64,000 nt of DNA from Sulfitobacter sp. (GCA_049680295.1 JBAUHN010000355.1:8836-72835); one strand, 5' to 3'. Counted from the stretch's first letter, positions 39,345-59,366 are shown. The notes: generated by a model not told the origin, from the sequence alone. Made by a program: numbers and translations.

Positions 39345-39394
39345 AGGGTCGAACGGGCGCAGCCCCGGAGGCGGCGTTTCAGAGCGCCCCGCCT

Positions 39395-39490: not shown

Positions 39491-39600
39491 TTTTCTTCGG
39501 CCCACTGGACGGCCAATAACGGCTTTGCGGGACAAAACGATCATTGACGCGTCTCAAATGAATGGCTGGTTTCGATGTAACGCGACTAAAAATGGAATAA

Positions 39601-40044: not shown

Positions 40045-40080
40045 TAAATCCTTTCAACAAGTATCATTTCATAGATGGCG

Positions 40081-40960: not shown

Positions 40961-41164
40961 GTAATTACATTATTACACATATAAGACGTGTCAAGTGGAT
41001 TGCGCGTAAAGCTTTCGAAGCCACTGATTAGCCAAATACTGGGAAGCGGACTTTGCTACGAAGTGCAGCATCCGTCACTCTGGGCTCAAACCGGCCATTG
41101 ACGTGACCATCGCCCGGGCTGCCGCCGGAGGGCGTGTATGCGGCGGATCACCGGACAATCCGCC

Positions 41165-41665: not shown

Positions 41666-41808
41666 AGAAAGACCCAGTCTGTTTTGTTGATAATTTCCGG
41701 CGCGTTGTTGCCGTTTTCAATCATGAGGTCGAGTGCAAAATACATGAAGGCCCGGAACAAAGCCGCAGGCGCCGGGCCAGTGCCTGCTTGCTTTACCCCA
41801 GCCAAACC

Positions 41809-43116
41809 CTATTCGCGGAAGGCGCGGTTAAAGAAATTCATCAGCGGCTGCGTCAGATATTCAAACGCGGTGCGATCGCCGGTCTTGATATAGACCTCGA
41901 CCGGCATCCCCGGCAGCAGCACCTGACCCGTCAGCTTGGCCAGATCCGTCTCAAGCGGCAGAATCTTGGTTTCATAATAATTGGCCCCGGAATTCGGATC
42001 GACAATCACATCCGCCGAGATTTGCGACAGCTTGCCGCCCATTTCGGGCATTTCGCGCTGATCAAAGGCGGAAAAACGCAAGGTTGCATCCTGGCCCAGA
42101 TAGACCTCGTCGATGTTAATCGAATTGATCCGGGCGGACACCACAAGCGGTTGATCTTGCGGGATAATATACATCAGATCGGCGGCGGGCTGCACCACGG
42201 ACTGCACCGCAAAGACCTGATTTTCATAAATGATCCCGCCCACAGGCGCCTTGATATCGAGCCGCGATATGGTGTCGCGCAGCGCGCCGCGGCGCTCCAG
42301 CAACTCGATCTCGCGAAATTGCAGATCGCGCAACGCGGTCACCGCCTCTTCGCGGCGGCGGGTTTCAAGCTGCAACAGACCAATCTGATTGCTGGTCGCC
42401 TGCCCGCGCAATTCGGCAATCTCGGCCTCCAGCCGTCCGGTCTGGCCCAAAAGTTCGGCCCGTTCCCGGCGCAGCCCCAGCACGCGCGAGGCTTGCGTCA
42501 ACTGCTGCTTGAGCAGCTTTTCCTGATCGGCAAGCTCGCCTTCCATGATCTCGCTTTGCGCGGCCAGGGCCTCAAGCTGGGAATTGATGCCCTTGACGCG
42601 GTTTTCGATTTGCAGGTTCTGTTCGCCCAGCAGATCAATTTCCTGCGCCAGCGCCTCGCGGCGGGCATTAAACAGGGTGCTTTCGCCCTCGACCTGTTTG
42701 CGCGCATCCGGGTTTGAGGCCGCAAGGGCCAAAAGCTCCGGTGCAAAGGTGATCTCGGCGGCGCCATCGCGTTCGGCTTCCAGCCGGGCCTGGCGCGCCA
42801 TGATTTCCTGCAACTGACCCACGACAATGGCCAGATCAGACATCAGCCGGGTGCCATCCAGGCGCACCAGCACATCACCGGGGGCAACCTGATCGCCGTT
42901 CTTGACCAGAATGTCGCCGACAACGCCGCCCTCAAGATGCTGAATGACCTGGCGGTTGCTTTCCACCTGCACCGTGCCCGAAGCCACAACAGCGCCCGAG
43001 ATATTGGCCCGCATGCCCCAGTAGCCCAGCCCCAGAACCAGCGCCGAAATGGCCAGAATGCCCGCAACAAGCGGCAGCTTGGCGCCCCAGACAGGGGCTT
43101 TTTCTTGTGCCTTCAT
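41809..43116 (-). CDS. HlyD-family type I secretion membrane-fusion protein
   Basis: N-terminal TM, GTVQVESNRQVIQHLEGGVVGDILVKNGDQV lipoyl-like motif, long coiled coil, and C-terminal LLPGMPVEVYIKTGDRT. Confidence 0.9.
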   Translation of the reverse strand: MKAQEKAPVWGAKLPLVAGILAISALVLGLGYWGMRANISGAVVASGTVQVESNRQVIQHLEGGVVGDILVKNGDQVAPGDVLVRLDGTRLMSDLAIVVGQLQEIMARQARLEAERDGAAEITFAPELLALAASNPDARKQVEGESTLFNARREALAQEIDLLGEQNLQIENRVKGINSQLEALAAQSEIMEGELADQEKLLKQQLTQASRVLGLRRERAELLGQTGRLEAEIAELRGQATSNQIGLLQLETRRREEAVTALRDLQFREIELLERRGALRDTISRLDIKAPVGGIIYENQVFAVQSVVQPAADLMYIIPQDQPLVVSARINSINIDEVYLGQDATLRFSAFDQREMPEMGGKLSQISADVIVDPNSGANYYETKILPLETDLAKLTGQVLLPGMPVEVYIKTGDRTAFEYLTQPLMNFFNRAFRE

Positions 43117-43120
43117 AGCC

Positions 43121-44854
43121 TCAGACCGCCTTTCGGTTGACCAGCGATTTTTTCACGTTGCCCGCGTTTTTCAGCATTTTATCCATCACCTCATCGCGCG
43201 GACCCATGGATGCAATGATGCCGTTTTCAACCACCATCAGCGTGTCGCATTCGGCAATCGCAATCGGGCGGTGGGTCATGATGATGACCGAATGGCCCGC
43301 CTTTTTGAAACCGCGCACGGCAAAGTTCAGCGCTTCTGATCCATCCGAATCCAGCGCCGAGTTCGGCTCATCCAGGATCAGCAGCACCGGGTCGCCATAA
43401 AGCGCCCGCGCCAGGGCGATGCGCTGGCGCTGGCCGCCCGACAGCTGGTTTTCATTGCCGTTGAGAACCGTATCATAGCCATCGGGCAATTGGGTGATCA
43501 TGTCATGCGCGTTGGACCGCCGGGCGGCGGCGACCACAGCTTCGGCATCGGGGGTTTGCGACATGCGGGCGATGTTTTCGGCCACCGTGCCGCTGAACAG
43601 GGTCACCGATTGCGGCAGATAGCCAATGTGCTGGCCCAGCCGTTCGGGATCATATTGGTCCAGCGTCGCGCCGCCCAGCCGCACTTCGCCCGCGGCAGGC
43701 TGCCAATAGCCCAAAAGCGTGCGCGCCAGTGTCGATTTACCCGATCCGCTGCGGCCAATGACGCCAAGCGCCTTGCCCGGTTGCAATTCGAACGACAGCG
43801 CGCGCAATGTCGGCACCTTGCCCCCCGGAGGTACAACCGTCAGCCCCAGAACTTTCAGCCGCGCCTCGGGCACCGGCAGTTGCGTCCGCTCGACCATGGG
43901 CGGGACTTTTGCCAAATAATCCGACAGCGCCTGCCAGCCGGCGCGCGCGCGCTGCAGCAGCGGCCACTGGCCCATGGATTGTTCAATCGGCGCCAGCGCG
44001 CGGCCCAAAAGGATGGTGCCCGCGATCATTGAGCCGGGCGTCATTTCGCCCTTGAGCACATAAAACGCGCCCAGGCCCAGCATCGCGGATTGCAAAAACA
44101 TCCGGAATGATTTGGTCAGTGATGTCAGGCTGCCGGTCCAGTCATTGGCACCAATGCTTTTGCGCAACCCGTCATTGCGCCGCAACAGCCAGCGATCGCG
44201 GATGGTCGAGCGCATGCCCTGGGCCAGAATAATCTCGCTGCCCGCACGGGCCTGATCGGCAAAGCTATGGGCGCCTTGCAGGGCGATCTGGCTTTGGCGG
44301 ACCCTGCGGGCAGTCAAAATCTGGTTGAGCAGCGCAAAGACAATCAGCACCGAAGCCCCGGCGACGGCCAGCCAGCCCAGCATCGGGTGAAACAGGAAAA
44401 TCGCCGCCACGAACAGCGGCGTCCAGGGCACATCCATCAGGGCCAGCAACAGCGGCGAGCCCAGAAAAGCCTGCACCGAATCCAGATCGCGCAGCACCGC
44501 CCCCGACACCGCCTGATCCTGCGGGTTGGTTGAACGGCGCAGCGTTGCCTCAAACACCCGCCCGTCCATGGCGGTCTGAAACCGCGCCCCCACCCGCGCC
44601 ATCACCCGGCCACGGGCAAAATCCAGCACCGCCATCAGGACAAACAATCCGGTGACAAGAATTGATAGCGCAATCAATGTCTCGACCGATTGCGACGACA
44701 GCACCCGGTCATAGACCTGCAACATATAAAGCGGCCCTGTCAGCATCAGCAGATTGACAAAGATGCTGAATATGATCGCCCAGAAAATAAGCGCGCGACC
44801 GCTGCGTTGGGCGGCGCGGAGTTCGTCGCGTCCGGGGGCTGGGGTTGAAGTCAT
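43121..44854 (-). CDS. Type I secretion system ABC permease/ATPase (PrtD/AprD type, no C39 domain)
   Basis: LMLTGPLYMLQVYDRVL TMD start; Walker A GRSGSGKST, signature LSGGQRQRIALARAL, Walker B LLILDEPNSALD. Start moved to the Met at 44854. Confidence 0.9.
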   Translation of the reverse strand: MTSTPAPGRDELRAAQRSGRALIFWAIIFSIFVNLLMLTGPLYMLQVYDRVLSSQSVETLIALSILVTGLFVLMAVLDFARGRVMARVGARFQTAMDGRVFEATLRRSTNPQDQAVSGAVLRDLDSVQAFLGSPLLLALMDVPWTPLFVAAIFLFHPMLGWLAVAGASVLIVFALLNQILTARRVRQSQIALQGAHSFADQARAGSEIILAQGMRSTIRDRWLLRRNDGLRKSIGANDWTGSLTSLTKSFRMFLQSAMLGLGAFYVLKGEMTPGSMIAGTILLGRALAPIEQSMGQWPLLQRARAGWQALSDYLAKVPPMVERTQLPVPEARLKVLGLTVVPPGGKVPTLRALSFELQPGKALGVIGRSGSGKSTLARTLLGYWQPAAGEVRLGGATLDQYDPERLGQHIGYLPQSVTLFSGTVAENIARMSQTPDAEAVVAAARRSNAHDMITQLPDGYDTVLNGNENQLSGGQRQRIALARALYGDPVLLILDEPNSALDSDGSEALNFAVRGFKKAGHSVIIMTHRPIAIAECDTLMVVENGIIASMGPRDEVMDKMLKNAGNVKKSLVNRKAV

Positions 44855-45234
44855 AACCTGGGGTCTACCTGTGTTCGGGTCGTCAGTCTGATCGCCATAG
44901 GGCTCATTGGCCGACAAAGATACTATCTGCGCCCTAAAGGGAAACAATTCCACAAGGCATGAGCGGTTGTCCTCCAGCCAGAGGGGGCCATCTGAGCAGA
45001 GGACCGCCACTTCGCAGGGATTCGCCTCTCGGTTTAGGGCAAGAGGTTTGCGCATTCAACTTTCGATGGAAATTACCACAGTATCAAGGCCTGTCACTGC
45101 CTCAAAAGCACCGGAGGCTTTGTTGCACTGGTTTGCAAACACAGTTATAATCGGCGCATAATTTTCTTTTGTTAAAGAACCGCTTTCATCGCTGACAGCA
45201 GCGATACGGGCCTGTGAATTTAAGGGGTAAGATC

Positions 45235-46203
45235 ATGACAGTTATGGCAGTGATAAAACGGATTGGGTTTTGCCTGTCCATGGCGGTTCTGGCGGCCTGT
45301 CAGGCGGGGGCGGCCAGCGATCTTCCCAACGCAGCAGGCGCCACCAGCGCGGCCCCGACCACAGATATTGCCCCGACACTGGCGCGCAGCCCCGACGCGC
45401 GCCGCCTGAACCTGCGCGTCATCCAATCAGGTCACAGCCTGACCGATCCGATCCCCGAGATTCTGCGCGGCATGGTCAGCGCCCGTGGCATCCAGAACCC
45501 GGTCATCGACCGATCCACCATTCCCGGCAGCCCGATGAGCTGGCGTTGGGACAACGCACCCGGATACGGCGAACCTGACGCGCGCGCCGACATCGGCAAA
45601 TACGAAGTGCTGGTGCTGACCGAAGGGGTGTCGATGTCGTTGACCCTGCCGCATCACAAATCCGATGAACTGGCTTTGCGCTGGTTCAAAAACACATGGT
45701 CCAAAGGCAACAATGGCAAAGGCGCCGAAACCATCCTTTATGCGTCCTGGGTCCATATCACCAGCGGCCCGAACTGGGAAAACCCCTATAAAGACCCCGA
45801 AGGCAATATCCCGTTCCGCAAGCGGCTGCCGCTGGAGTTCGCGCGCTGGGAACATGTGGCCAAATACGTCAATGCCAACCGCCCCAAGGGATCGCCCGCG
45901 ATGCGCATCATCCCCGGTCCTTTGCTGATGGCCGCCCTTTATGACGCAATTCAGGCCGGTAGGGCACCGGGGCTGACCAACATCTCGGATGTGTTCGAGG
46001 ATGAAATCCACGTCAACGATAAGGGCGCCTATTTTATCGCACTGGCACATTATGCTGTGATTTACGGCCAGAACCCGCGTGGATTGCCCTATAATCTTGG
46101 ATTGGCGCGACCGCCCAGCCGTGACCTTGCCCTGTGGATGCAGGATCTGGTCTGGAAAGTTGTGACAGATTACAAAGGCGCGGGCGTGCGGGCCTCTGGA
46201 TAA
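45235..46203 (+). CDS. Lipoprotein, SGNH-like hydrolase candidate (paralog 1 of the pair bracketing the PKS/NRPS locus)
   Basis: Lipobox AVLAAC, GHSL block (IQSGHSLTD) and C-terminal DEIHVND (DxxH). About 35-40% identity by eye with 62232-63164 across all blocks. Confidence 0.7.
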   Translation: MTVMAVIKRIGFCLSMAVLAACQAGAASDLPNAAGATSAAPTTDIAPTLARSPDARRLNLRVIQSGHSLTDPIPEILRGMVSARGIQNPVIDRSTIPGSPMSWRWDNAPGYGEPDARADIGKYEVLVLTEGVSMSLTLPHHKSDELALRWFKNTWSKGNNGKGAETILYASWVHITSGPNWENPYKDPEGNIPFRKRLPLEFARWEHVAKYVNANRPKGSPAMRIIPGPLLMAALYDAIQAGRAPGLTNISDVFEDEIHVNDKGAYFIALAHYAVIYGQNPRGLPYNLGLARPPSRDLALWMQDLVWKVVTDYKGAGVRASG

Positions 46204-46439: not shown

Positions 46440-49400
46440 ATGGACGGTTCTGATCAAGATATTCCGGTAAACGACAACGACATCGCTATCGTTGGTATGG
46501 CAGCGCATCTTCCGGGTGCGCGCACCATTGGCGATTACTGGGACAACCTGCGGGGTGGCGTCGAATCGATCCGCAAACTCACCCCCGAAGAACTGCGCGC
46601 CGCCGGTGAGCCTGAACATATTTCAGGCCGTCCCGATTATGTGCCCTATGCTGCCGTGCTTGAAGGCTTTGAAACATTTGACGCCGAATTCTTTGGTTTT
46701 TCCCCCAAAGAAGCCGCGATCATGGACCCGCAGCACCGCCAGTTTCTGGAGGTCGCCTGGGCCGCGCTGGAAAACGCGGGCCACCCGCCTGAAAACACCC
46801 CCGGACCGGTGGGCGTTTTTGCCGGCTGCGGCATGGGCAGCTATTTCTATTTCAACGTCTGTTCAAACCCGGATCTGGTCGACAATGTCGGCATGTTCCT
46901 GCTGCGCCACACCGGCAACGACAAGGATTTTCTGGCCACACGTCTTAGCCACACACTGGACCTCAAAGGCCCCAGCGTGAACATGCAGACCGCCTGTTCG
47001 ACATCACTGGTGACCACCCATTATGCCTGTCAGGCGCTGATGAACGGCGAATGTGACATGGCGCTGGCGGGGGGTGTGACGATCGAATTGCCCCACGCGC
47101 GCGGCTATCTTTACAAAGAAGGCGAAGTCCTGTCGCCGGATGGTCATTGTCATGCCTTTGATCACCGCGCCCAGGGCACGGTTTTTGGATCAGGGGCGGG
47201 CGTTGTTGTGCTGCGCCGTCTCGCGGACGCGATTGCCGATGGCGATCACATCTGGGCGGTGATCAAGGGCACGGCGATCAACAATGATGGCGCCGCCAAA
47301 GCCGGGTATCTGGCGCCTTCCGTCGATGGGCAAGCCGCCGCCATTGCCGAGGCGCATATGATGGCCGGCACCCCGGCCGACACCATTGATTACATCGAAT
47401 GTCACGGCACCGGCACCTATCTGGGCGACCCGATCGAGGTTGCGGCCCTGACACAAGCCTTTGCCGAGACCACGGACGATCAGGGTTTTTGCCGGATCGG
47501 GTCGGTCAAAACCAACATTGGCCACCTTGATACGGCGGCCGGTGTCGCCAGCCTGATCAAAACCAGCCTGTCGCTGCACCACAAGCAAATCCCGCCCTCG
47601 CTGGGCTATGAGGCCCCAAACCCGTCGATTGATTTCGATGGCAGCCCCTTTGTCGTCAATGACAAGCTGACCGACTGGGCGTCGCACAAAGGTCCGCGCC
47701 GGGCCGGGGTAAATTCACTGGGTGTGGGCGGAACCAATGCCCATGTTGTCCTGCAAGAAGCGCCGATGCGCGCCCCATCAGAAGATTCCGACTGGCCGTT
47801 TCAGATCTTGACCGTCTCGGGCCGCACCAAGGCCGCTTTGGACGGCAATGCCGCAGCCCTGGCCGCCCATCTGCGCGCAAACCCTGACCAATCGCTGGCC
47901 GATATCGCCTGGACCCTCAAAGAGGGCCGTCGCGCCTTTGAAAAACGCCGGGTGATTGTGGCCGCAGACCACGCAGAGGCGGCACAGCTGCTGGAAGAAA
48001 ACGATCCGCGCCGGGTGTTCACCCATACGCTGGTCGATGACGCCCCCGAATCCGTCTTTATGTTCCCCGGTGGCGGCGCCCAATACGCCGGCATGGCCCG
48101 CGATCTTTATGAGACCGAGCCGGTGTTCCAGGAATGGATGGACCGGGGTCTCGATATTCTGCAGCCCAAGCTCGATTACGACATCCGGGCGATCTGGCTG
48201 CCGGGTGCGGCAGATCACGCCAGCGCCGAGGAACGTCTGAAAACGCCATCCGTGCAATTGCCGTTGATCATGATCGTGGAATATGCGCTGGCGCAGCTTT
48301 GGATGTCCTGGGGTGTCAAACCCGACGTGCTTGTTGGCCATTCGATGGGCGAGAACACTGCCGCGTGTGTCGCCGGTGTGATGTCGTTTGAGGATTGCAT
48401 CGGTCTGGTGCATCTGCGCGGTCAGCTGTTTGATACCGTGGCCCCCGGGGGCATGCTCAGCGTGCCCTTGCCTGCTGCTGAACTGGAACCTTTGCTGGGC
48501 GACGATCTGGATCTGGGCGCGATCAACGCGCCGGACCTCAGCGTCGCCACAGGCCCGCAGGCCGCCTTGGACGTGCTGGAGGAGGTCCTGAAAGCCCGCG
48601 AGGTCGACTGCCAGCGGATCGGCATCAATATTGCCGCCCATTCGCGCATGTTAGAGCCTATTTTGGAGCGTTTCGGCGCCTATCTGCGTTCGATCACGTT
48701 AAACGCGCCGCAAATCCCTATTGTCTCAAACCGCAGCGGGCAGATGATGACGGATGCGCAGGCCATGGACCCTGACTATTGGGTCGGCCATTTGCGTCAC
48801 ACCGTGCGCTTTGCCGATTGCATCACCACGCTTGCGACAGACGCCACCCCCCGCATCTTTATTGAGGTCGGACCGGGCAAGGCGCTGTCGTCGCTGACCG
48901 GCATGCATGACAAGGTCAGCGCCAATCAGGTCATAGGCAGCCTGCGCCATCCCGATGACACCACAGCCGATGACGCCTATTTCATGGCGATGCTGGGCCG
49001 GGTCTGGGCGGTTGGCGGTGAATTCGACTGGGCGCAGATCTGGGGCGAGGCACGGCGCAACCGTGTGCCGCTGCCGGGATACGCCTTTCAGCGCGCGCCC
49101 TATTTCATTGAACCGGGCAGCAACCAGACCCAAAGTCAGGCCCAATGGCTGACCCGTACCGATGATGTGGGCGACTGGGGCTACCGCCCGGCCTGGGTGC
49201 CGCGCTATGCCGCCTGTGATCTGGATGTCACCCATGATCTGAAAGACGCCGAGACGCAGACATGGCTGGTCTTTGAAGACAACACCGGTCTGTGTACCGG
49301 CATCTCTGAGCGCCTGCGCGGTGCGGGCCAGCGTGTGGTCACCGTCACCCCCGGCGACGCCTTTGTGAAAACCGGCGACGACAGCTATGTGATTGCCCCT

Positions 49401-52400
49401 GAACGGGGGCGCGAAAACTATGATCAGCTGATCGGTGATCTGATCGCCCAAGATAAGGCACCCACCCGCATTCTGCACGGCTGGCTGGTCACCGGGGACG
49501 AAAGCTTCCGCCCCGGCAGCAGCTTTTTCCATCGCAATCAGGAACAGGGCTTCTACAGCCTGTTGTTCCTGGGCCAGGCCATCGGCGGCGAAGATCTGGC
49601 AATGCCTGTGCATATGACGGTTCTGACATCGGGGGCCATGCAGGTCAGCAACGAGGCGCTGCGCTATCCTGATAAATCCACCGTCATGGGACCTGCACGG
49701 GTGCTGCCGCAGGAATTTCCGGGGCTCACCACAACGGTGCTTGATCTGGATCTGCCGCTGGCTGCCAAAGGCCGGCGCAAGGGTCAGATCGCGCCGCAAA
49801 TGAACCGGCTGATTGATCAGACCCTCGAAGATCTGATTGCCGCACCGGCCAATATCACCGCCGCCCTGCGCGGTGAAAAACGTTATGAACTGTCGGTGCG
49901 CAAACTGGAGATACCAGAGCCTGACAAGGGTGATTTGCCCCTGCGCGACAAAGGTGTCTATATGATCACCGGCGGCTTTGGCGGCATTGGCCTGACCATC
50001 GCCCGCGATCTGATCACCACCCATTCGGCCCGCATTGTGCTGCTGTCACGCAGCGCCATGCCGCCGCGCGATCAATGGGATCAGGTGCTGCACCAGAACG
50101 CGCCGCAAGACCCTGTTGTGCGCCGCATCCGCGCCATTCAGGACCTCGAAAACCTGGGCGGCGAAGTGCTGTGCATCGCCGCCGACGTCAGCAACGTCGA
50201 AGACATGCGCGACGCGGTGACCCAGACCCGCGACGCCTTTGGCGACATCAACGGTGTGATCCATGCCGCAGGGCTGATTGCCGATGCCCCGATCATGGGT
50301 AAATCCACCATGGAGATCGAGGACGTGCTCACGCCCAAGGTCCATGGCACCCATGTGCTGGAAAGCATCTTTCCCGATGGCACGCTGGACTGGCTGGTGC
50401 TGTTCTCGTCAACGTCAACCGTGACCACGCCCGCAGGTCAGGTCGATTATGTCGCCGCCAACGAATATCTGAATGCCTATGCCAAATCGCGCAAGGGCGA
50501 CAAAACCCGGGTGCTGGCGATCAACTGGGGGGTCTGGTCCGAGGTCGGCATGGCCGCGGATGCGATGCTGGCACGGTCCGGCAGCGCCACGCCGCCGCCT
50601 TCTGATCCGGCCCATGTCCCGATGCTGGACGCCGCCACCTTTGGCCCGGCCCATAACCGGGTCTTTACCGCCACATATACCGCCAAGGACCGCTGGTTCC
50701 TGGATGAACACCGCACCAAAGCAGGCGACGCACTGTTGCCCGGCACCGGCTATCTGGAACTGGCCGCCGAAGCGCTGGAGGCGCAGGGCGAAACCAGCCC
50801 GTTTGAAATTCGCGATCTCTATTTCCTGCGCCCGCTGGCTGTGGGCGATGACGTGGCCCAAAACATCCGTCTGCGGCTGCCGCGCAGCGATGTCGGCTAT
50901 GATTTCTCGGTGCAAAGCAGCGATACGGACGCCTTTGAGATCAACGCCCAGGCCAGCCTGTCCCTGCTGCCGATGGAGACCCCCGAGGCGGTGGATATCG
51001 CGGCCCTGCGCGCGCGCTGCACAGTGGCGGCCACTGCGGATGCAGGTGCCGCCATCACCTCGCGGCAAGAAGAACATCTGAACTTTGGCCCGCGCTGGCG
51101 GGTGCTGATGTCGACCGCTTATGGCGACAACGAAGGTCTGGCCGATCTGAAACTGTCAGATGCCTATCAGGGCGATCTGGACGATGGCTATGTGCTGCAC
51201 CCCGGTCTGATGGATCTGGCCACCGGCTGGGCGATGGATCTGATCCGCGACTACCAGCCCACCAACCTGTGGGTACCGGTGTCTTATGGCTCTGTCAAAG
51301 TCTACCGCGATCTGCCGCGCGAGGTGGTCAGCTGGGTCCGCAATGCCGGTGACAACCACGCCGGCGGCCAGATGGCCAGCTTTGATGTCACCATCATGGC
51401 CCCCGATGGCACCGTCTGCGTCGAGATCAAAGGCTTCTCGATCCGGCGCATGGACAGCGTTGCCGATTTCGCCAAAACCGAAAACGCCGCCGTCGCACAG
51501 ATAGACGAGGACGCACCGCGCCCCTTGTCACCTGCCGAAGAACGGCTGCGGCACAATATCTCGCAGGGCATCAAACCGCATGAAGGCTCGGATGCGTTTT
51601 TCCGCGCGCTGGCCTCATCGGCGCCACAGGTCATCGTGTCTTCGCTGGATCTGGATTTGCTGACCGCGCAAGTCGCCGAAAGCTCGGCGGTGCCGGAAAG
51701 CTCCGAGCAGACCTTCCAGCGGCCGGAACTGGATTCCGAATACGCCGCCCCCGCCAATGACATCGAGGAAAAACTGGCCAGCATCTGGCAGGATTTGCTG
51801 GGTGTCGATCAGGTCGGCGTCGAAGACAGCTTTTTCGACCTCGGGGGCCATTCGCTGATCGCGGTGCGGCTGTTTGCGCAGGTGCGCAAGGCCTATAGTG
51901 TCGATTTTCCGATCTCGGTGCTGTTTGAAGCGCCAACCATCCGCAAATGCGCTGAAATGATCGCCGCACGCGGTGTGGCCACATCCTCGGATGCCGGTGA
52001 CAATGCCACCGCAGCGCCCGAAACCGCCACCCGCCGCTTTACCCATCTGGTGCCGATGCACGCAGGCGAGGCCGGACCGCAAACGCCGTTCTTTCTGGTT
52101 GCGGGCATGTTTGGCAACGTGCTGAACCTGCGCCATCTGGCGCATCTTCTGGGCGCGGACCGGCCATTCTACGGGTTGCAGGCGCGCGGGCTTTACGGCG
52201 ATGAGGCGCCCCATACCTCCCTGGTTGAGGCGGCCACCGATTACATCGCTGAAATCCGTGCCGTGCAGCCGCATGGGCCTTATATGGTTGGCGGATTTTC
52301 CGGCGGCGGCATCACCGCCTATGAGATCGCACAACAATTGACAGCCATGGGCGAAGAAGTATCGGTTCTGGTGATGCTCGACACACCGCTGCCGGTGGCA

Positions 52401-52913
52401 GAGCCTGTGACCCTGCGTGACCGGCTTATGATCCAATGGATTGAGCTGCGCAAAAAAGGCCTGAACTATCCGCTGCAATGGGCCAGAAACCGCATTGCAT
52501 GGGAACTCTCCAAGCGCCGCGGTGACGCGGACGGCGATGACATGCCCGCCAATCAGTTCCACAACACCGAAATCGAAGCCGCGTTCATGGAAAGCGTGCG
52601 GTCTTACCAGGTCAAACCCTGGAACGGCCCATTGGCAATGATGCGCCCGCCCTTGGTTGGCACCTGGGAAGTCGCCCCAGGCCGCTGGATCAATGATGAA
52701 CGTGACTATGTGCTGCATGACAATGGCTGGACCGGCTGGGCGCCCAAAATCGAAGTGTTCGAAGTGCCCGGAGACCACGATTCCATGGTGTTAGAGCCGA
52801 ATGTACGGGTGCTTGGCGCCCGGATGAAGCGCTGTATTGAGGCGGCAGGTCGCAGCCCCGGCGTCGCACCCGTCTCCGCAGGCCTGCGCACCATTAAAAA
52901 GGCAGCAGAATAA
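46440..52913 (+). CDS. Type I polyketide synthase, KS-AT-KR-DH-T-TE
   Basis: KS: TACSTSLV, ECHGTGT, KTNIGHLDTAAG. AT: GHSMGE..R..IAAHS. KR: GGFGGIGL, HAAGLIAD, S..YVAANEYL. DH: HRTKAGDALLP and HPGLMD. Carrier: FFDLGGHSL. TE: GGFSGGG, LDTP, GDHDSM. Confidence 0.92.
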   Translation: MDGSDQDIPVNDNDIAIVGMAAHLPGARTIGDYWDNLRGGVESIRKLTPEELRAAGEPEHISGRPDYVPYAAVLEGFETFDAEFFGFSPKEAAIMDPQHRQFLEVAWAALENAGHPPENTPGPVGVFAGCGMGSYFYFNVCSNPDLVDNVGMFLLRHTGNDKDFLATRLSHTLDLKGPSVNMQTACSTSLVTTHYACQALMNGECDMALAGGVTIELPHARGYLYKEGEVLSPDGHCHAFDHRAQGTVFGSGAGVVVLRRLADAIADGDHIWAVIKGTAINNDGAAKAGYLAPSVDGQAAAIAEAHMMAGTPADTIDYIECHGTGTYLGDPIEVAALTQAFAETTDDQGFCRIGSVKTNIGHLDTAAGVASLIKTSLSLHHKQIPPSLGYEAPNPSIDFDGSPFVVNDKLTDWASHKGPRRAGVNSLGVGGTNAHVVLQEAPMRAPSEDSDWPFQILTVSGRTKAALDGNAAALAAHLRANPDQSLADIAWTLKEGRRAFEKRRVIVAADHAEAAQLLEENDPRRVFTHTLVDDAPESVFMFPGGGAQYAGMARDLYETEPVFQEWMDRGLDILQPKLDYDIRAIWLPGAADHASAEERLKTPSVQLPLIMIVEYALAQLWMSWGVKPDVLVGHSMGENTAACVAGVMSFEDCIGLVHLRGQLFDTVAPGGMLSVPLPAAELEPLLGDDLDLGAINAPDLSVATGPQAALDVLEEVLKAREVDCQRIGINIAAHSRMLEPILERFGAYLRSITLNAPQIPIVSNRSGQMMTDAQAMDPDYWVGHLRHTVRFADCITTLATDATPRIFIEVGPGKALSSLTGMHDKVSANQVIGSLRHPDDTTADDAYFMAMLGRVWAVGGEFDWAQIWGEARRNRVPLPGYAFQRAPYFIEPGSNQTQSQAQWLTRTDDVGDWGYRPAWVPRYAACDLDVTHDLKDAETQTWLVFEDNTGLCTGISERLRGAGQRVVTVTPGDAFVKTGDDSYVIAPERGRENYDQLIGDLIAQDKAPTRILHGWLVTGDESFRPGSSFFHRNQEQGFYSLLFLGQAIGGEDLAMPVHMTVLTSGAMQVSNEALRYPDKSTVMGPARVLPQEFPGLTTTVLDLDLPLAAKGRRKGQIAPQMNRLIDQTLEDLIAAPANITAALRGEKRYELSVRKLEIPEPDKGDLPLRDKGVYMITGGFGGIGLTIARDLITTHSARIVLLSRSAMPPRDQWDQVLHQNAPQDPVVRRIRAIQDLENLGGEVLCIAADVSNVEDMRDAVTQTRDAFGDINGVIHAAGLIADAPIMGKSTMEIEDVLTPKVHGTHVLESIFPDGTLDWLVLFSSTSTVTTPAGQVDYVAANEYLNAYAKSRKGDKTRVLAINWGVWSEVGMAADAMLARSGSATPPPSDPAHVPMLDAATFGPAHNRVFTATYTAKDRWFLDEHRTKAGDALLPGTGYLELAAEALEAQGETSPFEIRDLYFLRPLAVGDDVAQNIRLRLPRSDVGYDFSVQSSDTDAFEINAQASLSLLPMETPEAVDIAALRARCTVAATADAGAAITSRQEEHLNFGPRWRVLMSTAYGDNEGLADLKLSDAYQGDLDDGYVLHPGLMDLATGWAMDLIRDYQPTNLWVPVSYGSVKVYRDLPREVVSWVRNAGDNHAGGQMASFDVTIMAPDGTVCVEIKGFSIRRMDSVADFAKTENAAVAQIDEDAPRPLSPAEERLRHNISQGIKPHEGSDAFFRALASSAPQVIVSSLDLDLLTAQVAESSAVPESSEQTFQRPELDSEYAAPANDIEEKLASIWQDLLGVDQVGVEDSFFDLGGHSLIAVRLFAQVRKAYSVDFPISVLFEAPTIRKCAEMIAARGVATSSDAGDNATAAPETATRRFTHLVPMHAGEAGPQTPFFLVAGMFGNVLNLRHLAHLLGADRPFYGLQARGLYGDEAPHTSLVEAATDYIAEIRAVQPHGPYMVGGFSGGGITAYEIAQQLTAMGEEVSVLVMLDTPLPVAEPVTLRDRLMIQWIELRKKGLNYPLQWARNRIAWELSKRRGDADGDDMPANQFHNTEIEAAFMESVRSYQVKPWNGPLAMMRPPLVGTWEVAPGRWINDERDYVLHDNGWTGWAPKIEVFEVPGDHDSMVLEPNVRVLGARMKRCIEAAGRSPGVAPVSAGLRTIKKAAE

Positions 52914-52915
52914 CG

Positions 52916-53929
52916 ATGTCTCACCCCACAGTTCTGACCATCATCCTGAACTATAAAACCGCCCCGATGACCCAGAAATCCATCGCCGCAGCGCGGGCCG
53001 CGATGGCCGGGTTATCCGGTGAAATCACCGTCGTTGATAACGCCTCACAGGACGGATCCTTCGAGACGCTGTCGGCGTATGTGGCAGGCCTTGGCCCCGA
53101 TCCGGACATCCCGGTCCGGGTCCTGGCATCGGGCCGCAATGGCGGCTTTGGGGCGGGCAATAACGTCGGCATCCGCGCCGGGCTGAAGGATGGATCGAAA
53201 CCCGATTACGTCTATGTGCTGAACTCTGACGCCTTCCCGGACAAAGACGCCATTCGTCTGCTGCTGGCGCATCTGCAAACCCACCCCGACGCGGGTTTTG
53301 CCGGCAGTTACATCCATGGCGAAGACGGCGACACCCATCTGACGACATTCCGGTTTCCCTCCGTGTTCAGCGAATTCGAAGGGGCGATCCAGTTTGGCCC
53401 GGTCAGCCGTCTGCTGGCCAAATATGCCGTGCCGGTCAAAACCCCGGACACGGTCACACCCGTCGACTGGCTGGCAGGCGCCAGCATCATGATGCGCCAA
53501 AGCGTGCTGGATGAAATTGGCATCTTTGACGAAGAATTCTTTCTCTATTTTGAGGAAACGGACCTGTGCCGCCGCGCCCATCTGGCCGGGCATCAGACCG
53601 TGTTTGTGCCGCAAAGCCGTGTGGCCCATATCGGGTCGGTGTCCACGGGCATGAAAACATGGGGGCGGGTGCCGGGCTACTGGTTTGCCTCGCGGCGCTA
53701 TTATTTCACCAAGAACCACGGCCGGCTTTATGCGGGTCTGGCCACGCTGGCGCATCTGGCGGGGGGCGGGCTGCACTGGCTGCGCTGTCTGGTGACGCGC
53801 CGCGCCAACAACACGCCGTCGCATTTCCTGCGCACCTTGGCCTGGCATGATCTGACCGCCCGGCGCCGCGAGAATCCAAAACCGCAACCTGCGCTGACAT
53901 CCACGCCCCATCCAACGACCGGAGAATAA
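52916..53929 (+). CDS. Glycosyltransferase family 2 (embedded between the PKS and NRPS genes)
   Basis: LTIILNYKTAPMT..VVDNASQDGS..LNSDA..FLYFEETDLCRR. Starts 2 nt after the PKS stop and ends 4 nt before the NRPS start. Confidence 0.85.
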   Translation: MSHPTVLTIILNYKTAPMTQKSIAAARAAMAGLSGEITVVDNASQDGSFETLSAYVAGLGPDPDIPVRVLASGRNGGFGAGNNVGIRAGLKDGSKPDYVYVLNSDAFPDKDAIRLLLAHLQTHPDAGFAGSYIHGEDGDTHLTTFRFPSVFSEFEGAIQFGPVSRLLAKYAVPVKTPDTVTPVDWLAGASIMMRQSVLDEIGIFDEEFFLYFEETDLCRRAHLAGHQTVFVPQSRVAHIGSVSTGMKTWGRVPGYWFASRRYYFTKNHGRLYAGLATLAHLAGGGLHWLRCLVTRRANNTPSHFLRTLAWHDLTARRRENPKPQPALTSTPHPTTGE

Positions 53930-53933
53930 CCCC

Positions 53934-56900
53934 ATGTCCGATTTCAATTCCATCGTCATCGGCAACGAATCCCTTGTGATTCAATGCGGTGACATGCTGT
54001 TGCAGGGCGGGCATAAGATCAGCGCCCTTGTCACCCGCAACCCGGACGTGCGCGCCTGGGGCGAAAAACAGGGTCTAAGCGTGCATAGGCCGGGGTCTGA
54101 TCTGGCGGATCGGCTGGGGGATACCCCCTGTGACTGGCTGTTTTCCATCGCCAACCTCGATATTATTCCGCAGGCCCTGCTGGACCGCGCCGCCAAAGGG
54201 GCGATCAACTTTCACGATGGGCCCCTGCCGCGTTATGCCGGTCTGAACGCACCGGCCTGGGCGCTGATCAACGGCGAGGCGCAGCACGGCATCACCTGGC
54301 ACCTGATCGAAGGCGGCATCGACGAAGGCGATATCATCGAGCAACGCAGCTTTGACATCGCCCCCCATGACACTGCCCTGACGATGAACACCAAATGCTA
54401 TGTCGCGGCGATCGAAAGTTTCGGCGCGGTGATATCGGCCGTGGCAGATGGTCTGCCCGGCCGCCGCGCTCAGGACCTGTCCCAGCGCAGCTATTTCGCC
54501 AAAGACGCCCGGCCCGCCGCTGCCGCACGGCTGGATTTCAATACATCCGCCAAAGATCTGGTGGCCTTGGTGCGGGGCCTTGATCATGGCGACTACTGGA
54601 ACCCGCTGTCTTGCCCCAAGATCGAAGCGAATGGCCAAATCTGGCTGATCGGCGCCGCCTCTGTCGCCGAAGACAGCCCCGATGCGGCCCCCGGTACGGT
54701 CCTTGCCAGCGACGGCGACACACTGACTGTTGCCACCGGTGCAGGCGCCATTGCGCTGACAAATATCAGACCCTGCACAGGCGATGCGGACCTGCCACAG
54801 GCAGGCGATGTCCTCTCCTCGCCCTCGGCAGCCGAGGCAACGGCCCTTGATGCCGTCCTGGCCAAAACCCTGCGCGCAGAACCCTATTGGCGCAAACGTC
54901 TTGAAACCCTGACCCCGGCGCAGGCCCCTTTGATGCAGGCCACGGATGCCAAGGGCGTCGAGACGCGCAAATTAAATCTGCCCGCGGCACTAGGCGCGGA
55001 TGATCAGGCCGCAGTGCTGGCCACATTGGTCCTGCGCCTTGGCGATGACAGCACCATTGATCTGGCCTGGCAGGACGCAGGAACCACCCATAACGCGCCA
55101 AAACCCTATGTCAGAGACTGGGTGCCGCTGCGGTTTGAGACAAAAGACAGCTTTGACGCCGCCAGCACCGCACTCGCCGATGAGATCGCAACCGCGCGCA
55201 GCAAGGGCGGTTTTGCCTGCGATCTGCCCGCGCGTATTCCGGGTCTGGATGCTGCGCAAATGCCGCAGGTCGGGGTGACATCCGGCCGTGAAATCATTTC
55301 CGGCACGGTTCTGACCCTTGCCACCGGTGACGCCCCCGCCCTGATCGCGGATGCCGCACAGATGCCCGCCGCCCTGCTGGATCTGATCGCAGCGCGTCTT
55401 GAAACCCTTGGCACAGCCCTTGCCATGCCTGACGCGCGCGGCCAGGCGCTTAGTGCCCTGCCGATCCTGCCGGATGCAGAACGCCAGCACATCCTGCAGG
55501 GCCTGAACGACACAAAAACCGCCTACCCGGCAGATGCCTGCATTCATCAGCTGTTTGAAGCCCAGGTCGCCCGCACGCCGGACGCCGAAGCACTGGTGTT
55601 TGAAGGCGAGGTGCTAAGCTATGCCGCGCTGGATGCGCGCGCCAATCAGGTGGCCCATGTGTTGCGCGATATGGGCGTCGGCCCCGGCAAAACCGTCGGG
55701 CTGCATTTGCGCCGCTCGACCGAATTGCTGGTGGGCGCCCTGGCGATCTTTAAGGCCGGGGGCGCTTATGTGCCGCTGGACCCAGGCTTCCCCTCTGATC
55801 GCATTGCCTACTACATCGAAGACAGCGCCGCACCGGTGATCATCACCCAGAGCGATCTGGCAGCGGGCCTGCCCGCGCATAGTGCCAAAGTGCTTGTGTT
55901 AGAGAGTGATCCGCGCATTGCCGCCGCCGCCACAGACACGCCCGACAGCGGTGTTTCCGCCTCTGATCTGGCCTATCTGATCTACACTTCCGGCTCGACC
56001 GGCAAGCCCAAGGGCGTCATGGTTGAACACCGCAATGTATCGAATTTCTTTACCGGCATGGACGCCCATATCAGCCATGACCCTGCGGGCGTCTGGCTGG
56101 CCGTGACCAGCCTGTCGTTTGATATCTCGGTGCTGGAACTGTTCTGGACCCTTGCGCGGGGTTTCAAACTGGTGCTTAGCAGCGATGAAGACCGCGGTCT
56201 GATCTCAAACGGGGGGCTGCAGGTATCCGACACGCCGATGGATTTCAGTCTCTATTACTGGGGGAATGACGATGCTGTCGGCACCGAGAAATACAAATTG
56301 CTGCTGGAAGGCGCGAAATTCGCCGATGACCACGGCTTTTGCGCTGTCTGGACGCCTGAACGGCATTTCCACGCCTTTGGCGGGCCTTATCCCAACCCGT
56401 CCGTGACCGGTGCGGCGGTGGCTGCCGTGACCAAAAATCTGTCGGTGCGCGCCGGTAGTATCGTCGCCCCCCTGCACCATCCTGCGCGCATTGCCGAAGA
56501 ATGGGCGGTGATTGACAATCTGACGGGGGGCCGTGTCGGGCTGGCCATGGCCTCGGGCTGGCAGCCCGATGATTTTGTGCTGCGCCCCGAAAACACGCCG
56601 CCACACAATAAAACCGCCCTGATAGAGACGATCAAGACCGTGCGCCGGCTTTGGGCGGGCGAAGCGGTTGAATTCCCCCGCCAGGATGGCGCGATGCACG
56701 CGGTTGTCACCCAGCCGCGCCCGATTTCGGACAAAATGCCGATGTGGGTCACCTCTGCCGGCAACCCCGCCACCTGGGTTGAGGCGGGCGAATTGGGCGC
56801 CAATGTTCTGACCCACCTTCTGGGCCAAAGCGTGGATGAGGTCGCCGAAAAGATCAAAATCTACCACAAGGCGCTGCGCAGCGCCGGGCATGATCCGGCC

Positions 56901-58562
56901 GACCACACCGTCACGCTGATGCTGCACACCTATATCGCCGACAGCCGCGATGCCGCGCGCGACGTCGCCCGCGAGCCGATGAAAAGCTATCTGCGCAGTG
57001 CCGCCGGGCTGATCAAACAATACGCCTGGGCCTTTCCCGCCTTTAAGCGCCCTGAGGGGGCCAAAAACGCCTTTGATCTTGATCTGGGCAGTCTGGAACC
57101 GGACGAGCTGGAAGGCATCCTCGATTTCGCCTTTGAGCGGTATTTCAACGATTCCGGCATGTTTGGGACTGTTTCGGACTGTGTGGAACGGGTCGAAGCG
57201 CTGAAAAAAATCGGCGTTGGCGAAGTCGCCTGCCTGATCGAATATGGCATCGCCACCGACACCGTTCTTGAGGGTCTGCGCCCGCTGGCCGAGGTGTTGC
57301 GCCAGTCCAATCAGGCCACTGAACTGGACGCGGATGATTTCTCCATCGCCGCCCAGATCATCCGCCACAAGGTCACGCATATGCAGTGCACCCCCTCAAT
57401 GGCGCAGATGATCACCATGAACGACGAGGCGCGCAGCGCTTTGGCGCGGGTGCCGCATGTGCTGGTTGGCGGCGAGGCACTGTCGGGTGCGCTGGCCCAG
57501 GAATTGCACCAGATCACCGGCAAGCCGGTCCAGAATATGTATGGTCCCACGGAAACCACGATCTGGTCCACAACCGAACGGACAACAGGCGGCGAGGGTG
57601 TGATCAACATCGGCAAACCCATCGCCAATACCCAGGTCTATGTGCTGGACGAGGACCGCCAGCCCGTGCCCATCGGCACCGCAGCCGAGCTTTATATCGG
57701 CGGCGATGGGGTGACGCGCGGCTATTGGCAGCGCCCTGATTTGACAGACGAAAGATTCGTCGCTGATCCCTTTATAGAGCCTGATATGGCCGCCCCCGGC
57801 GGCGCGCGCATGTACCGCACCGGCGATCTGGTGCGCTGGCGCAGCGATGGGCGGCTTGATTTTCTGGGCCGCATTGACCATCAGGTCAAACTGCGCGGCT
57901 ACCGGATTGAACTGGGCGAAATTGAAGCGGCAATTGACGGCTTTGCAGGCGTGCGCCAATCGGTGGTGATGCCCCGCGAAGACACCCCCGGCCTGACCCA
58001 GCTGGTGGCCTATGTGACCACCACCGCCCCGGTGGCCGAGGCAGCGTTGCGCAAACATATCGGCGCCGGACTGCCTGACTATATGGTACCCGCACGTGTT
58101 GTAACGCTGGACAGCTTTCCGCTGACCCCCAACAAAAAGATCGACCGCAAGGCGCTGCCGGCCCCCATGGCCGTGCAGGCTGCACCCCCCGCGACAGCCA
58201 GCGCCCCGGCCCCGGACGGATCATCGGCCCAGAGGATCGCCGACATCTGGTCACAGATATTGGGCGTCGCCAACATCGGTGCGCGCGATAACTTCTTTGA
58301 TCTGGGCGGGCATTCACTGCTGGCGGTACAGGCCCACCGTGAAATACGCACCACCCTGTCGGTGCCAAAGCTCAGCATCACGGACATTTTCCGCTTTCCA
58401 ACCCTGCAGGCCCTTGCCGCCCAGGTGGATGCGAAATCCGGCGTGTCTGAACCTGCGTCCAAACCCGATGACGCCCCCGCCGTGGCCGAACGGGCCGCAG
58501 CCCGCAGCGATGCCATGTCGCGCCGCAAGGAAATGAGGGCGAAACGTCACGCCCGCTCATGA
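53934..58562 (+). CDS. NRPS starter module: formyltransferase-like domain, C-domain C-lobe remnant, A domain (Gly code) interrupted by a luciferase-like monooxygenase, and T domain
   Basis: F: INFHDGPLPRYAG + GGIDEGDII. A: LSYAALDARAN (A1), LKAGGAYVPLD-type (A2), YLIYTSGSTGKPKG (A3), FDISVLE (A4), then a 360-aa LLM insert, then NMYGPTETT (A5), GELYIGG..GYW (A6), YRTGD (A7), GRIDHQVKLRGYRIELGEIE (A8), LPDYMVP (A9), NKKIDRK (A10). T: FFDLGGHSL. Confidence 0.92.
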   Translation: MSDFNSIVIGNESLVIQCGDMLLQGGHKISALVTRNPDVRAWGEKQGLSVHRPGSDLADRLGDTPCDWLFSIANLDIIPQALLDRAAKGAINFHDGPLPRYAGLNAPAWALINGEAQHGITWHLIEGGIDEGDIIEQRSFDIAPHDTALTMNTKCYVAAIESFGAVISAVADGLPGRRAQDLSQRSYFAKDARPAAAARLDFNTSAKDLVALVRGLDHGDYWNPLSCPKIEANGQIWLIGAASVAEDSPDAAPGTVLASDGDTLTVATGAGAIALTNIRPCTGDADLPQAGDVLSSPSAAEATALDAVLAKTLRAEPYWRKRLETLTPAQAPLMQATDAKGVETRKLNLPAALGADDQAAVLATLVLRLGDDSTIDLAWQDAGTTHNAPKPYVRDWVPLRFETKDSFDAASTALADEIATARSKGGFACDLPARIPGLDAAQMPQVGVTSGREIISGTVLTLATGDAPALIADAAQMPAALLDLIAARLETLGTALAMPDARGQALSALPILPDAERQHILQGLNDTKTAYPADACIHQLFEAQVARTPDAEALVFEGEVLSYAALDARANQVAHVLRDMGVGPGKTVGLHLRRSTELLVGALAIFKAGGAYVPLDPGFPSDRIAYYIEDSAAPVIITQSDLAAGLPAHSAKVLVLESDPRIAAAATDTPDSGVSASDLAYLIYTSGSTGKPKGVMVEHRNVSNFFTGMDAHISHDPAGVWLAVTSLSFDISVLELFWTLARGFKLVLSSDEDRGLISNGGLQVSDTPMDFSLYYWGNDDAVGTEKYKLLLEGAKFADDHGFCAVWTPERHFHAFGGPYPNPSVTGAAVAAVTKNLSVRAGSIVAPLHHPARIAEEWAVIDNLTGGRVGLAMASGWQPDDFVLRPENTPPHNKTALIETIKTVRRLWAGEAVEFPRQDGAMHAVVTQPRPISDKMPMWVTSAGNPATWVEAGELGANVLTHLLGQSVDEVAEKIKIYHKALRSAGHDPADHTVTLMLHTYIADSRDAARDVAREPMKSYLRSAAGLIKQYAWAFPAFKRPEGAKNAFDLDLGSLEPDELEGILDFAFERYFNDSGMFGTVSDCVERVEALKKIGVGEVACLIEYGIATDTVLEGLRPLAEVLRQSNQATELDADDFSIAAQIIRHKVTHMQCTPSMAQMITMNDEARSALARVPHVLVGGEALSGALAQELHQITGKPVQNMYGPTETTIWSTTERTTGGEGVINIGKPIANTQVYVLDEDRQPVPIGTAAELYIGGDGVTRGYWQRPDLTDERFVADPFIEPDMAAPGGARMYRTGDLVRWRSDGRLDFLGRIDHQVKLRGYRIELGEIEAAIDGFAGVRQSVVMPREDTPGLTQLVAYVTTTAPVAEAALRKHIGAGLPDYMVPARVVTLDSFPLTPNKKIDRKALPAPMAVQAAPPATASAPAPDGSSAQRIADIWSQILGVANIGARDNFFDLGGHSLLAVQAHREIRTTLSVPKLSITDIFRFPTLQALAAQVDAKSGVSEPASKPDDAPAVAERAAARSDAMSRRKEMRAKRHARS

Positions 58563-59254: not shown

Positions 59255-59366
59255 CGCAAACGACACAAACCTGCGGCTCAATCTGTTCCAGACGGCCATT
59301 TTAACTGTTTGTTAAGACCTTGAGACCCTGGTGTTGCGCACGAGGTTTCACAGGGTAAATGCAAAC

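Follow-up and report, generated by a model that had tools for sequence, protein, structure and literature searches.

A KS-AT-KR-DH polyketide synthase of Sulfitobacter sp. and its candidate N-formylglycyl loader

About half of Roseobacter genomes carry a cluster of a polyketide synthase (PKS), a glycosyltransferase, a non-ribosomal peptide synthetase (NRPS) and a phosphopantetheinyl transferase (PPTase), whose product is uncharacterised; two papers on the cluster give no domain order, product or fifth gene for it (PMC4337385, PMC4062626). Here we consider a stretch of 64,000 nucleotides from Sulfitobacter sp. (GCA_049680295.1 JBAUHN010000355.1:8836-72835), below called the window, in which a PKS gene of this kind occupies positions 46440-52913 of the + strand. 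A four-gene hybrid NRPS/PKS cluster of Roseobacter is said to have been reported by Martens et al. in 2007. The cluster has been an orphan since then, even though much of an ecologically dominant marine lineage carries it.

In the PKS of the window the KR domain precedes the DH domain, an order still called rare or unusual in the current literature. The same non-canonical order has been described for a module of BE-43547/rakicidin biosynthesis that turns serine into a vinylogous amino acid (bioRxiv 10.64898/2026.09.17.752105). The present analysis ties the layout to a characterised protein, ClbB, and to a large clade of PKS modules from non-actinobacterial phyla that accept amino acids and in which it is the normal architecture, which matters for domain callers and for PKS engineering. 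Two known types of NRPS resemble the partner of the PKS. MtaG and MelG of the myxothiazol and melithiazol pathways are terminal C-A(MOx)-T-TE modules that make a terminal amide; they have a glycine-type code and a luciferase-like monooxygenase (MOx) between core motifs A4 and A5 of the A domain. OzmO of the oxazolomycin pathway and its conglobatin counterpart are F-A(Gly)-T loaders that pass N-formylglycyl to a KS, with a cyclodehydratase as the defining companion.

Domain order and active sites of the PKS

The PKS is probably a single-module cis-AT hybrid of the class in which a KR didomain follows the AT directly and the DH comes next, as in ClbB and the BE-43547/rakicidin module. This assignment is one part of our best explanation for the whole PKS-GT2-NRPS-PPTase cluster (GT2, family-2 glycosyltransferase), namely that it encodes a module of the ClbB/BE-43547 type extending an N-formylglycyl starter once. 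We hold this explanation to be probable, though far from certain, and infer its individual steps from sequence. The gene is one uninterrupted frame of 2157 codons, and the protein has the architecture KS-AT-psiKR-KR-DH-T-TE:

46440-52913, + strand: PKS gene, KS-AT-psiKR-KR-DH-T-TE, 2157 aa; Roseobacter-group orthologues have an identical Pfam set
46476-47774, + strand: KS domain, aa 13-445, with C186, H322 and H362 (Pfam KS aa 13-390)
aa 393-519 of the PKS: KS-AT linker (Pfam)
48045-48959, + strand: AT domain, aa 536-840, with GHSMG, Arg660 and IAAH (Pfam AT aa 539-837)
49155-49769, + strand: structural subdomain of the KR (psiKR), aa 906-1110 (Pfam PF21394 Beta-ketacyl_N, Rossmann-like, aa 942-1104; NCBIfam 'KR prefix' aa 912-1001)
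49935-50564, + strand: catalytic KR, aa 1166-1375, predicted B-type, with IAD at the LDD position and Tyr1337 (Pfam KR aa 1172-1368)
50595-51479, + strand: DH domain, aa 1386-1680, with His1424 and Asp1592 (Pfam PKS_DH_N aa 1394-1493, PS-DH aa 1519-1675)
51750-51974, + strand: carrier, aa 1771-1845, with PCP-like FFDLGGHSL and Ser1805 (Pfam PP-binding aa 1777-1841)
52050-52829, + strand: thioesterase, aa 1871-2130, with Ser1954, Asp1981 and His2113 (Pfam Thioesterase from aa 1885)

The KR thus precedes the DH, since Pfam boundaries with E-values from 1e-15 to 1e-69 across the domains place the former at aa 1172-1368 and the latter at aa 1394-1675. The domain order and motif positions of the original prediction, made from this DNA alone, are borne out.

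The active sites are complete. The KS has its catalytic Cys and two His residues (C186, H322, H362). The AT carries GHSMG with Ser635 and combines an atypical motif, IAAH at aa 731-734, with a retained Arg660 in VHLRGQ, in agreement with the prediction. In the KR, GGFGGIG (aa 1178-1184) is followed by HAAGLIAD with Asp1282 and by Tyr1337, and Tyr, Ser and Lys are all present. Orthologues have IDD or LDD in place of IAD, the second Asp alone being invariant, and the A-type Trp is absent; this fits the B-type already predicted for this KR, and a trans double bond. Both DH residues lie where they had been placed, His1424 in HRTKAGDALLPG and Asp1592 in HPGLMD. However, the histidine motif is H-x4-G-x4-P, one residue longer than the canonical HxxxGxxxxP. 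In a HMMER alignment with the solved PksJ DH, the two residues fall on the catalytic pair. The carrier has GGHSL with Ser1805, and the TE has GFSGG with Ser1954, plus Asp1981 and His2113. The key catalytic residues are invariant in 13 close orthologues and 14 distant homologues.

The carrier-TE part (aa 1751-2157) matches NRPS structures first, PCP-TE or PCP (AB3403, PvdL, LgrA, TycC, SrfA-C, EntF), so the predicted PCP-like nature of the carrier stands. The best solved matches of the KR are the KRs of MlnE and PksJ. A trans-AT origin, which the ranking of MlnE and PksJ for KR and DH could imply, was rejected in view of the cis AT and of collinearity with the cis-AT synthase ClbB; most likely, the ranking reflects which structures exist in the PDB.

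Published 'KS-AT-KR-DH' strings are mostly biosynthetic shorthand and not sequence order, and the order in ClbB was therefore checked directly. In the genome of E. coli Nissle, which also encodes ClbI, the Pfam order of ClbB is C-A-T-KS-AT-KR(2194-2365)-DH(2401-2653)-ER(2704-2996)-T. Residues 11-1629 of the PKS align with ClbB 1083-2619 in one BLASTP high-scoring pair that runs from the KS into the DH (31.5% identity over 1660 residues, 670 bits). Since ClbB is collinear over KS-AT-KR-DH in this checked order, the placement of KR before DH has a well-studied non-iterative precedent.

The KS-AT region is most similar to ClbI, ClbC and CurL. The closest solved KS-AT, 8xju/8xjy, is colibactin ClbI, as shown by a search of the PDB with ClbI of E. 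coli Nissle. The KS is 51% identical to that of ClbI and 54-58% identical to KSs of multimodular KR-DH(-ER) modules. In a neighbour-joining tree it falls inside a stand-alone clade adjoining the KSs of hybrid KR-DH(-ER) modules, with a canonical-order KS (42%) as outgroup. The tree is small, has no bootstrap and contains no PfaA or PKSE references; it supports a non-iterative modular placement without settling it. The original prediction had named clustering of the KS with non-iterative cis-AT modules as an argument against its own reading, and by similarity ranking such clustering is largely found.

Residues 921-2120 of the PKS were searched against 1.84 billion cluster representatives, and architectures of the matching proteins were mapped by local phmmer with the domains of the window PKS. 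Dozens of 50%-identity clusters contain proteins of ~2100-2200 aa with matches over the full search region at 35-54% identity, and multimodular proteins show one continuous match across psiKR-KR-DH-T. All mapped stand-alone homologues are KS-AT-psiKR-KR-DH-T-TE. The multimodular architectures are C-A-T-KS-AT-KR-DH-T-TE, C-A-T-KS-AT-KR-DH-ER-T-TE, KS-AT-KR-DH-T-C-A-T and KS-AT-KR-DH-T-KS-AT-KR-T. Together with the loci described below, the architectures of the homologues fit an in-line amino-acid-accepting module better than a dedicated iterative synthase.

Two metagenomic proteins depart from these patterns. P0240 (6150 aa) has, within a single chain, both a DH-KR module of canonical order and a KR-DH-ER module, and P0236 (2446 aa) has an ER between AT and KR (KS-AT-ER-KR-DH-T-TE). 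The order of reductive domains is thus more plastic in this clade than textbooks suggest.

The original prediction had taken KR-then-DH as a mark of iterative synthases of the PfaA/HglE type, for polyunsaturated fatty acids (PUFA) and heterocyst glycolipids. A KR followed by a PS-type DH is indeed one trait in common. However, the PfaA model TIGR02813 scores 346.7 bits against a cut-off of 1010.1, with its best stretch (aa 164-825) covering KS-AT alone, whereas general modular-PKS models score 600-980 bits. Pfam finds no carrier, tandem or single, between AT and KR of the PKS; the only PP-binding domain (aa 1777-1841) follows the DH. Pfam scans of the neighbouring ORFs detected none of the partner genes of PUFA or heterocyst glycolipid synthases (KS-CLF, FabA-type DH, ER; pfaB-D, hglC/D). 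Model score, carrier position and partner genes led us to reject PfaA/HglE membership and, with ClbB collinear, the domain order does not hold as an iterative mark. Membership among the enediyne PKSE proteins (KS-AT-ACP-KR-DH with a C-terminal PPTase) was also rejected: in the PKS of the window the carrier comes after the DH and a TE forms the C-terminus, and the PPTase has a gene of its own.

The loading NRPS and the distribution of the pair

Three genes follow the PKS gene:

52916-53929, + strand: GT2, starting 3 nt past the PKS stop; same position in most Rhodobacterales loci
53934-58562, + strand: NRPS, candidate loader of 1542 aa, with F at aa 1-290, the monooxygenase (aa 771-1121) between the two parts of the A domain (aa 530-760 and aa 1130-1410), and T at aa 1433-1497
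58559-59254, + strand: Sfp/EntD-type PPTase, overlapping the NRPS stop by 4 nt

The four genes are co-directional (46440-59254), with gaps of 3 and 4 nt and then the 4-nt overlap. The same layout is seen in L001, L002 and about 40 Rhodobacterales loci. Over 98-100% of the length, the PKS is 64-86% identical to orthologues from Aliiroseovarius, Ruegeria, Thalassovita, Yoonia and Tateyamaria. The PKS of Leisingera sp. ANG59, a member of the genus in which the cluster was reported (PMC4337385), is 62% identical. Nothing essential differs from the Roseobacter cluster; thus the PKS of the window is, judged by sequence, an orthologue in this known but uncharacterised cluster.

In the NRPS, Pfam places AMP-binding at aa 541-754 and Bac_luciferase at aa 782-1095, and AMP-binding resumes at aa 1134. 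The insert, a luciferase-like monooxygenase (TIGR04020, 472 bits), lies between core motifs A4 and A5, with FDISVLE preceding and NMYGPTE following it. TIGR04020 monooxygenases are described as alpha-hydroxylases or Baeyer-Villiger enzymes acting on carrier-bound chains (PMC8739492). The specificity code, read by GrsA numbering with an indexing that reproduces the published PheA code, is DILQLGMIWK, which is Gly-like; DILQxGMIWK dominates among the 67 partner NRPSs of the loci described below. The N-terminus is a formyltransferase domain with an intact N-x-H...D motif (Asn/His/Asp), and 64 of the 67 have NFHDGPLP..AG at this site. Pfam finds no C or TE domain in the NRPS. The best NCBIfam match, 'SolG', is a plain C-A-P module and was set aside as uninformative.

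The distribution of the pair was scanned using one genome per species; the best 80 loci of at least 600 stretches were considered, and domain maps were drawn for 86 loci. The NRPS and the PKS occur together in more than ten phyla, usually with the NRPS gene first and often among genes for polysaccharide synthesis. Among the best 80 loci, Proteobacteria are represented by Rhodobacterales, Rhizobiales, Sphingomonadales, Burkholderiales and Gammaproteobacteria, and other bacteria by Myxococcota, Planctomycetota, Actinomycetota (Ilumatobacteraceae, 52% identity), Acidobacteriota, Cyanobacteria, Chloroflexota, Gemmatimonadota and Binatota. Of the PKSs in the 86 mapped loci, 75 end in T-TE, and an A(MOx) NRPS lies in the same locus as the PKS in 67 of the 86.

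The gene order in 40 Rhodobacterales loci is PKS-(GT2)-NRPS-PPTase. Outside Rhodobacterales, the NRPS gene lies directly upstream of the PKS gene in the same direction in 23 loci from other phyla, with a 4-nt overlap between the two in Rhodopirellula maiorica. In one locus (L078:2503-15879), the homologue partnered with the same F-A(MOx)-T loader is a KS-AT-KR-DH-T fused to C-A-T, without a TE, and therefore acts like any in-line module. Related modules stand behind ordinary C-A-T modules in Acidobacteriota, Gemmatimonadota, Chloroflexota and Microcoleus. Two Pyrinomonadaceae loci with PKSs behind ordinary C-A-T modules carry the monooxygenase outside the A domain: in one (L087:9508-16764) the PKS carries a luciferase-like monooxygenase at its C-terminus, and in the other (L074:10236-17484) the monooxygenase is a separate gene just before the PKS.

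The PKSs from an Ilumatobacteraceae locus (L011, Actinomycetota) and a gammaproteobacterial locus (L010) are 49-52% identical to that of the window over the full length, above some alphaproteobacterial homologues. These identities suggest that the pair may have moved horizontally between phyla. No description was found in the literature of how widely the pair is distributed, of the collinear unit of NRPS and PKS, or of the AT signature and the polysaccharide context, which are considered below. Papers on PUFA hybrids, myxoglucamide and rhabdobranin were considered and offer no direct parallel to the pair.

The proposed product and its alternatives

Most likely, the pair would extend N-formylglycyl once, possibly after hydroxylation, to a 4-formamido-2-butenoyl unit. 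The PPTase would prime the carriers of both proteins. The A domain of the NRPS would load glycine on the T domain and the N-terminal F domain would formylate it; at some stage, the embedded monooxygenase probably hydroxylates the alpha-carbon of glycine. The KS would then take N-formylglycyl and condense it once with a malonyl-type extender, loaded by the AT on the PCP-like carrier. Reduction by the B-type KR and dehydration by the DH would give the (E)-4-formamido-2-butenoyl thioester, that is, N-formyl vinylogous glycine, possibly 4-hydroxylated, to be released or transferred by the NRPS-type TE. A persisting alpha-hydroxyl is perhaps a glycosylation site for the GT2.

That an F-A-T loader might pass formyl-Gly to the KS and lead to a vinylogous glycine had been suggested in the original prediction. 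The suggestion gains from the Gly-like code, from the intact F motif and from the gene context, with the F-A(MOx)-T gene in the PKS operon of the window and directly upstream of the PKS in the 23 loci from other phyla. It provides a concrete proposal for an orphan cluster: glycine would be loaded, formylated and probably hydroxylated, then extended once to a C4 vinylogous amino acid and released in the NRPS manner.

Several observations speak against this proposal. The order in Rhodobacterales, with the PKS before the NRPS, is not collinear with the proposed flow, and the N-terminus of the PKS has almost no docking sequence. Both specificity motifs of the AT differ from those of its malonyl-specific relatives. 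The timing and the consequence of the monooxygenase step are uncertain, as alpha-hydroxylation may persist or may trigger loss of formamide; by analogy with MtaG and MelG, an alpha-hydroxylated N-acylglycine could shed formamide, leaving a glyoxylyl starter. The sequence by itself is compatible with repeated use of the module. Finally, a full-text literature search on the product of the cluster yields only statements that it is uncharacterised.

The AT motif xAAH is found in 61 of the 62 PKSs partnered with an F-A(MOx)-T loader. The AT family of the window has [IV]AAH and RPSxQLP, whereas in ClbB, ClbI and the multimodular relatives these sites carry the signatures of malonyl specificity, HAFH and QTxxTQP. 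Other features recur among the partnered PKSs: the extra DH residue is present in all 57 readable sequences, the carrier motif LGGHSL in 58 of 62, and the KR has [LIV]xD. Since the AT differs at both specificity motifs, the extender may not be malonyl, and the same assembly logic would then give a 2-substituted vinylogous glycine. The presence of [IV]AAH/RPSxQLP in 61 of the 62 PKSs with this loader, while relatives of the same layout with other partners keep HAFH/QTxxTQP, speaks for such a change, and replacement of Phe by Ala should enlarge the AT pocket. However, we know of no specificity assigned to the xAAH motif, the Arg that binds the free carboxylate is kept in 80 of 80 cases, and no genes for an ACP-linked extender unit are conserved beside the pair, which makes malonyl the default assumption. 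An extender other than malonyl-CoA seems unlikely.

The alternatives to single extension of N-formylglycyl concern the starter and the number of cycles. In the former, formylation would serve solely to turn glycine into an N-acylglycine, a substrate for alpha-hydroxylation by the embedded monooxygenase. Collapse of the carbinolamide would then free formamide, and the PKS would extend, reduce and dehydrate the resulting glyoxylyl-S-T to a nitrogen-free 4-oxo-2-butenoyl (fumaraldehydic) unit. The position of the monooxygenase in a Gly-specific A domain between A4 and A5 would suit this route; MtaG and MelG share the arrangement, and in their case hydroxylation of N-acylglycine leads to C-N cleavage. 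The F domain and the monooxygenase also co-occur with near-perfect fidelity in the 67 loci. However, this would be an elaborate path to a small reactive aldehyde, N-acyl-alpha-hydroxyglycines can be stable when no lyase acts on them, as in peptide amidation, and no sequence feature bears on loss of formamide. We regard the glyoxylyl route as distinctly unlikely.

Repeated use of KS-AT-KR-DH-T on the formylglycyl starter would instead give a long N-formyl-amino polyenoyl chain, possibly the lipid part of a glycoconjugate. PfaA and PKSE also have a KR followed by a PS-type DH and no ER, the PKS of the window is a stand-alone module with its own TE, and the adjacent GT2 with polysaccharide- or glycolipid-type surroundings would suit a lipid. 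However, the PfaA model recovers 347 of 1010 bits, from KS-AT alone, and there is a single carrier after the DH instead of tandem ACPs between AT and KR. Pfam detects no CLF, FabA-type DH, ER or PKSE-type PPTase domain in the PKS and its neighbours. The closest relatives are in-line assembly-line modules, and in L078 the homologue hands its product straight to a C domain. An iterative synthase thus appears very improbable.

Surroundings of the cluster and comparison with known systems

Glycan genes of the window lie, among other places, at 32152-34974 (two GT2s, one sulfotransferase), at 60936-62117 (a GT1) and at 1984-5181 (a methyltransferase, a GT1 and a polysaccharide deacetylase). The first group belongs to a block at 29811-34974 with an SDR (short-chain dehydrogenase/reductase), a FAD-binding oxidase, a GT2, the sulfotransferase and a GT2. 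With the blocks 29811-34974 and 1984-5181, the window has surface-glycan loci on both sides. The flanks of other loci include rml genes and genes for exosortase EpsH/EpsI, Wzz, Bac_transf, Wzy_C, a Wzx-type flippase, pyruvyl transferase and GDSL proteins. Counted by family, the 117 flanking ORFs taken from 26 loci outside Rhodobacterales include:

GT2, 8; Bac_transf, 5; GT1/GT4, 4; PPTase, 4
GH5, 3; polysaccharide deacetylase, 3; Wzz, 3; exosortase, 2; EpsI, 2

The frequency of priming sugar transferases (5 of 117) is far above our own rough estimate of the genome average, at most about one per thousand genes. The association of the pair with polysaccharide genes is a lead, not a proof. Together, the GT2 and the recurrent polysaccharide surroundings suggest a product that is glycosylated or attached to a glycan.

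Two further genes flank the cluster:

62232-63164, + strand: SGNH-like predicted lipoprotein by its motifs (GHSL ... DDIH); in at least 16 Rhodobacterales loci an orthologue directly follows the PPTase
45214-46203, + strand: predicted lipoprotein, paralogue of the former (33% identity, E 1e-29), immediately upstream of the PKS gene

Both have the motifs GHSL ... DDIH/DEIH and weak matches to DUF4886. Given the position of the orthologues of the first gene, the 'four-gene' cluster often has a fifth conserved gene. A sequence search of the PDB with this SGNH-like protein gave no match. In two distant loci (L006, L007), GDSL-family genes lie beside the PKS.

One possibility is that F-A(Gly, MOx)-T and KS-AT-KR-DH-T-TE form an ancient two-protein unit, now found across more than ten phyla, whose product is not diffusible: an acyl group or primer of the N-formyl vinylogous (hydroxy)glycine type, put on or into an exopolysaccharide or surface glycoconjugate by the NRPS-type TE and/or the SGNH-like proteins and the GT2. 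This extended proposal is tentative and, as a whole, rather unlikely. If true, the unit would make a polysaccharide modification by assembly-line chemistry, not a diffusible antibiotic. The polysaccharide context suggests that the product may be located in the cell envelope or exopolysaccharide, not in culture extracts.

Between the PPTase and the fifth gene there is a 515-aa ORF (59331-60878, + strand) that matches no Pfam family and has no homologue in the 88 loci; beside it, on the opposite strand, lies the GT1 gene (60936-62117). These two genes resemble a local insertion within the cluster. Divergent from the PKS operon lies a type I secretion-like set (36528-45055, - strand): a TolC-type OEP (36528-37913), an HlyD-type adaptor (41809-43116) and an ABC exporter (43121-45055). 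Only a few other loci (L027, L007) have an ABC homologue close to the pair, so that a link of this set to the cluster is unproven. An unrelated aromatic-catabolism-like block at 10717-17476 encodes TRAP proteins DctM/DctP, an extradiol-type dioxygenase, a FAD monooxygenase, a fumarylacetoacetate-hydrolase-family protein and an IclR regulator.

Compared with the known systems, the NRPS of the window has the insertion of MtaG and MelG, with the monooxygenase between A4 and A5 of a glycine A domain and a Gly-type code, but it is an F-A-T loader ahead of a PKS and not a terminal C...TE module. It has the domain set of the OzmO and conglobatin loaders, but the monooxygenase lies inside the A domain and a single PKS module follows. 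Neither the neighbouring genes in the window nor the 117 flanking ORFs of the 26 loci include a cyclodehydratase. PfaA/HglE and PKSE share with the PKS a KR upstream of a PS-type DH and the lack of an ER in the same protein; in contrast to it, they are iterative, have carriers between AT and KR (in tandem in PfaA), and have dedicated partner subunits or a C-terminal PPTase.

Two of the closest parallels are hybrid modules. Module 6 of the BE-43547/rakicidin (APD) PKS, compared here by its published description and not by sequence, has the KR-DH order and NRPS modules on either side, and converts Ser plus one extender into a vinylogous amino acid. Unlike the PKS of the window, it is actinobacterial, stands within a long assembly line, includes a second, vinylogous dehydration, and is assigned an extra 'DHt' before the KR by antiSMASH. 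ClbB, from the colibactin pks island of E. coli, differs in its fused C-A-T, an ER after the DH, the absence of a TE, an AT with HAFH and full reduction of the beta-carbon, and is of limited identity (31.5%). However, it has the same KS-AT-KR-DH order in one alignment from KS through DH, and it takes an aminoacyl or peptidyl chain from an NRPS carrier and extends it once, which is the role proposed here for the PKS of Sulfitobacter sp.

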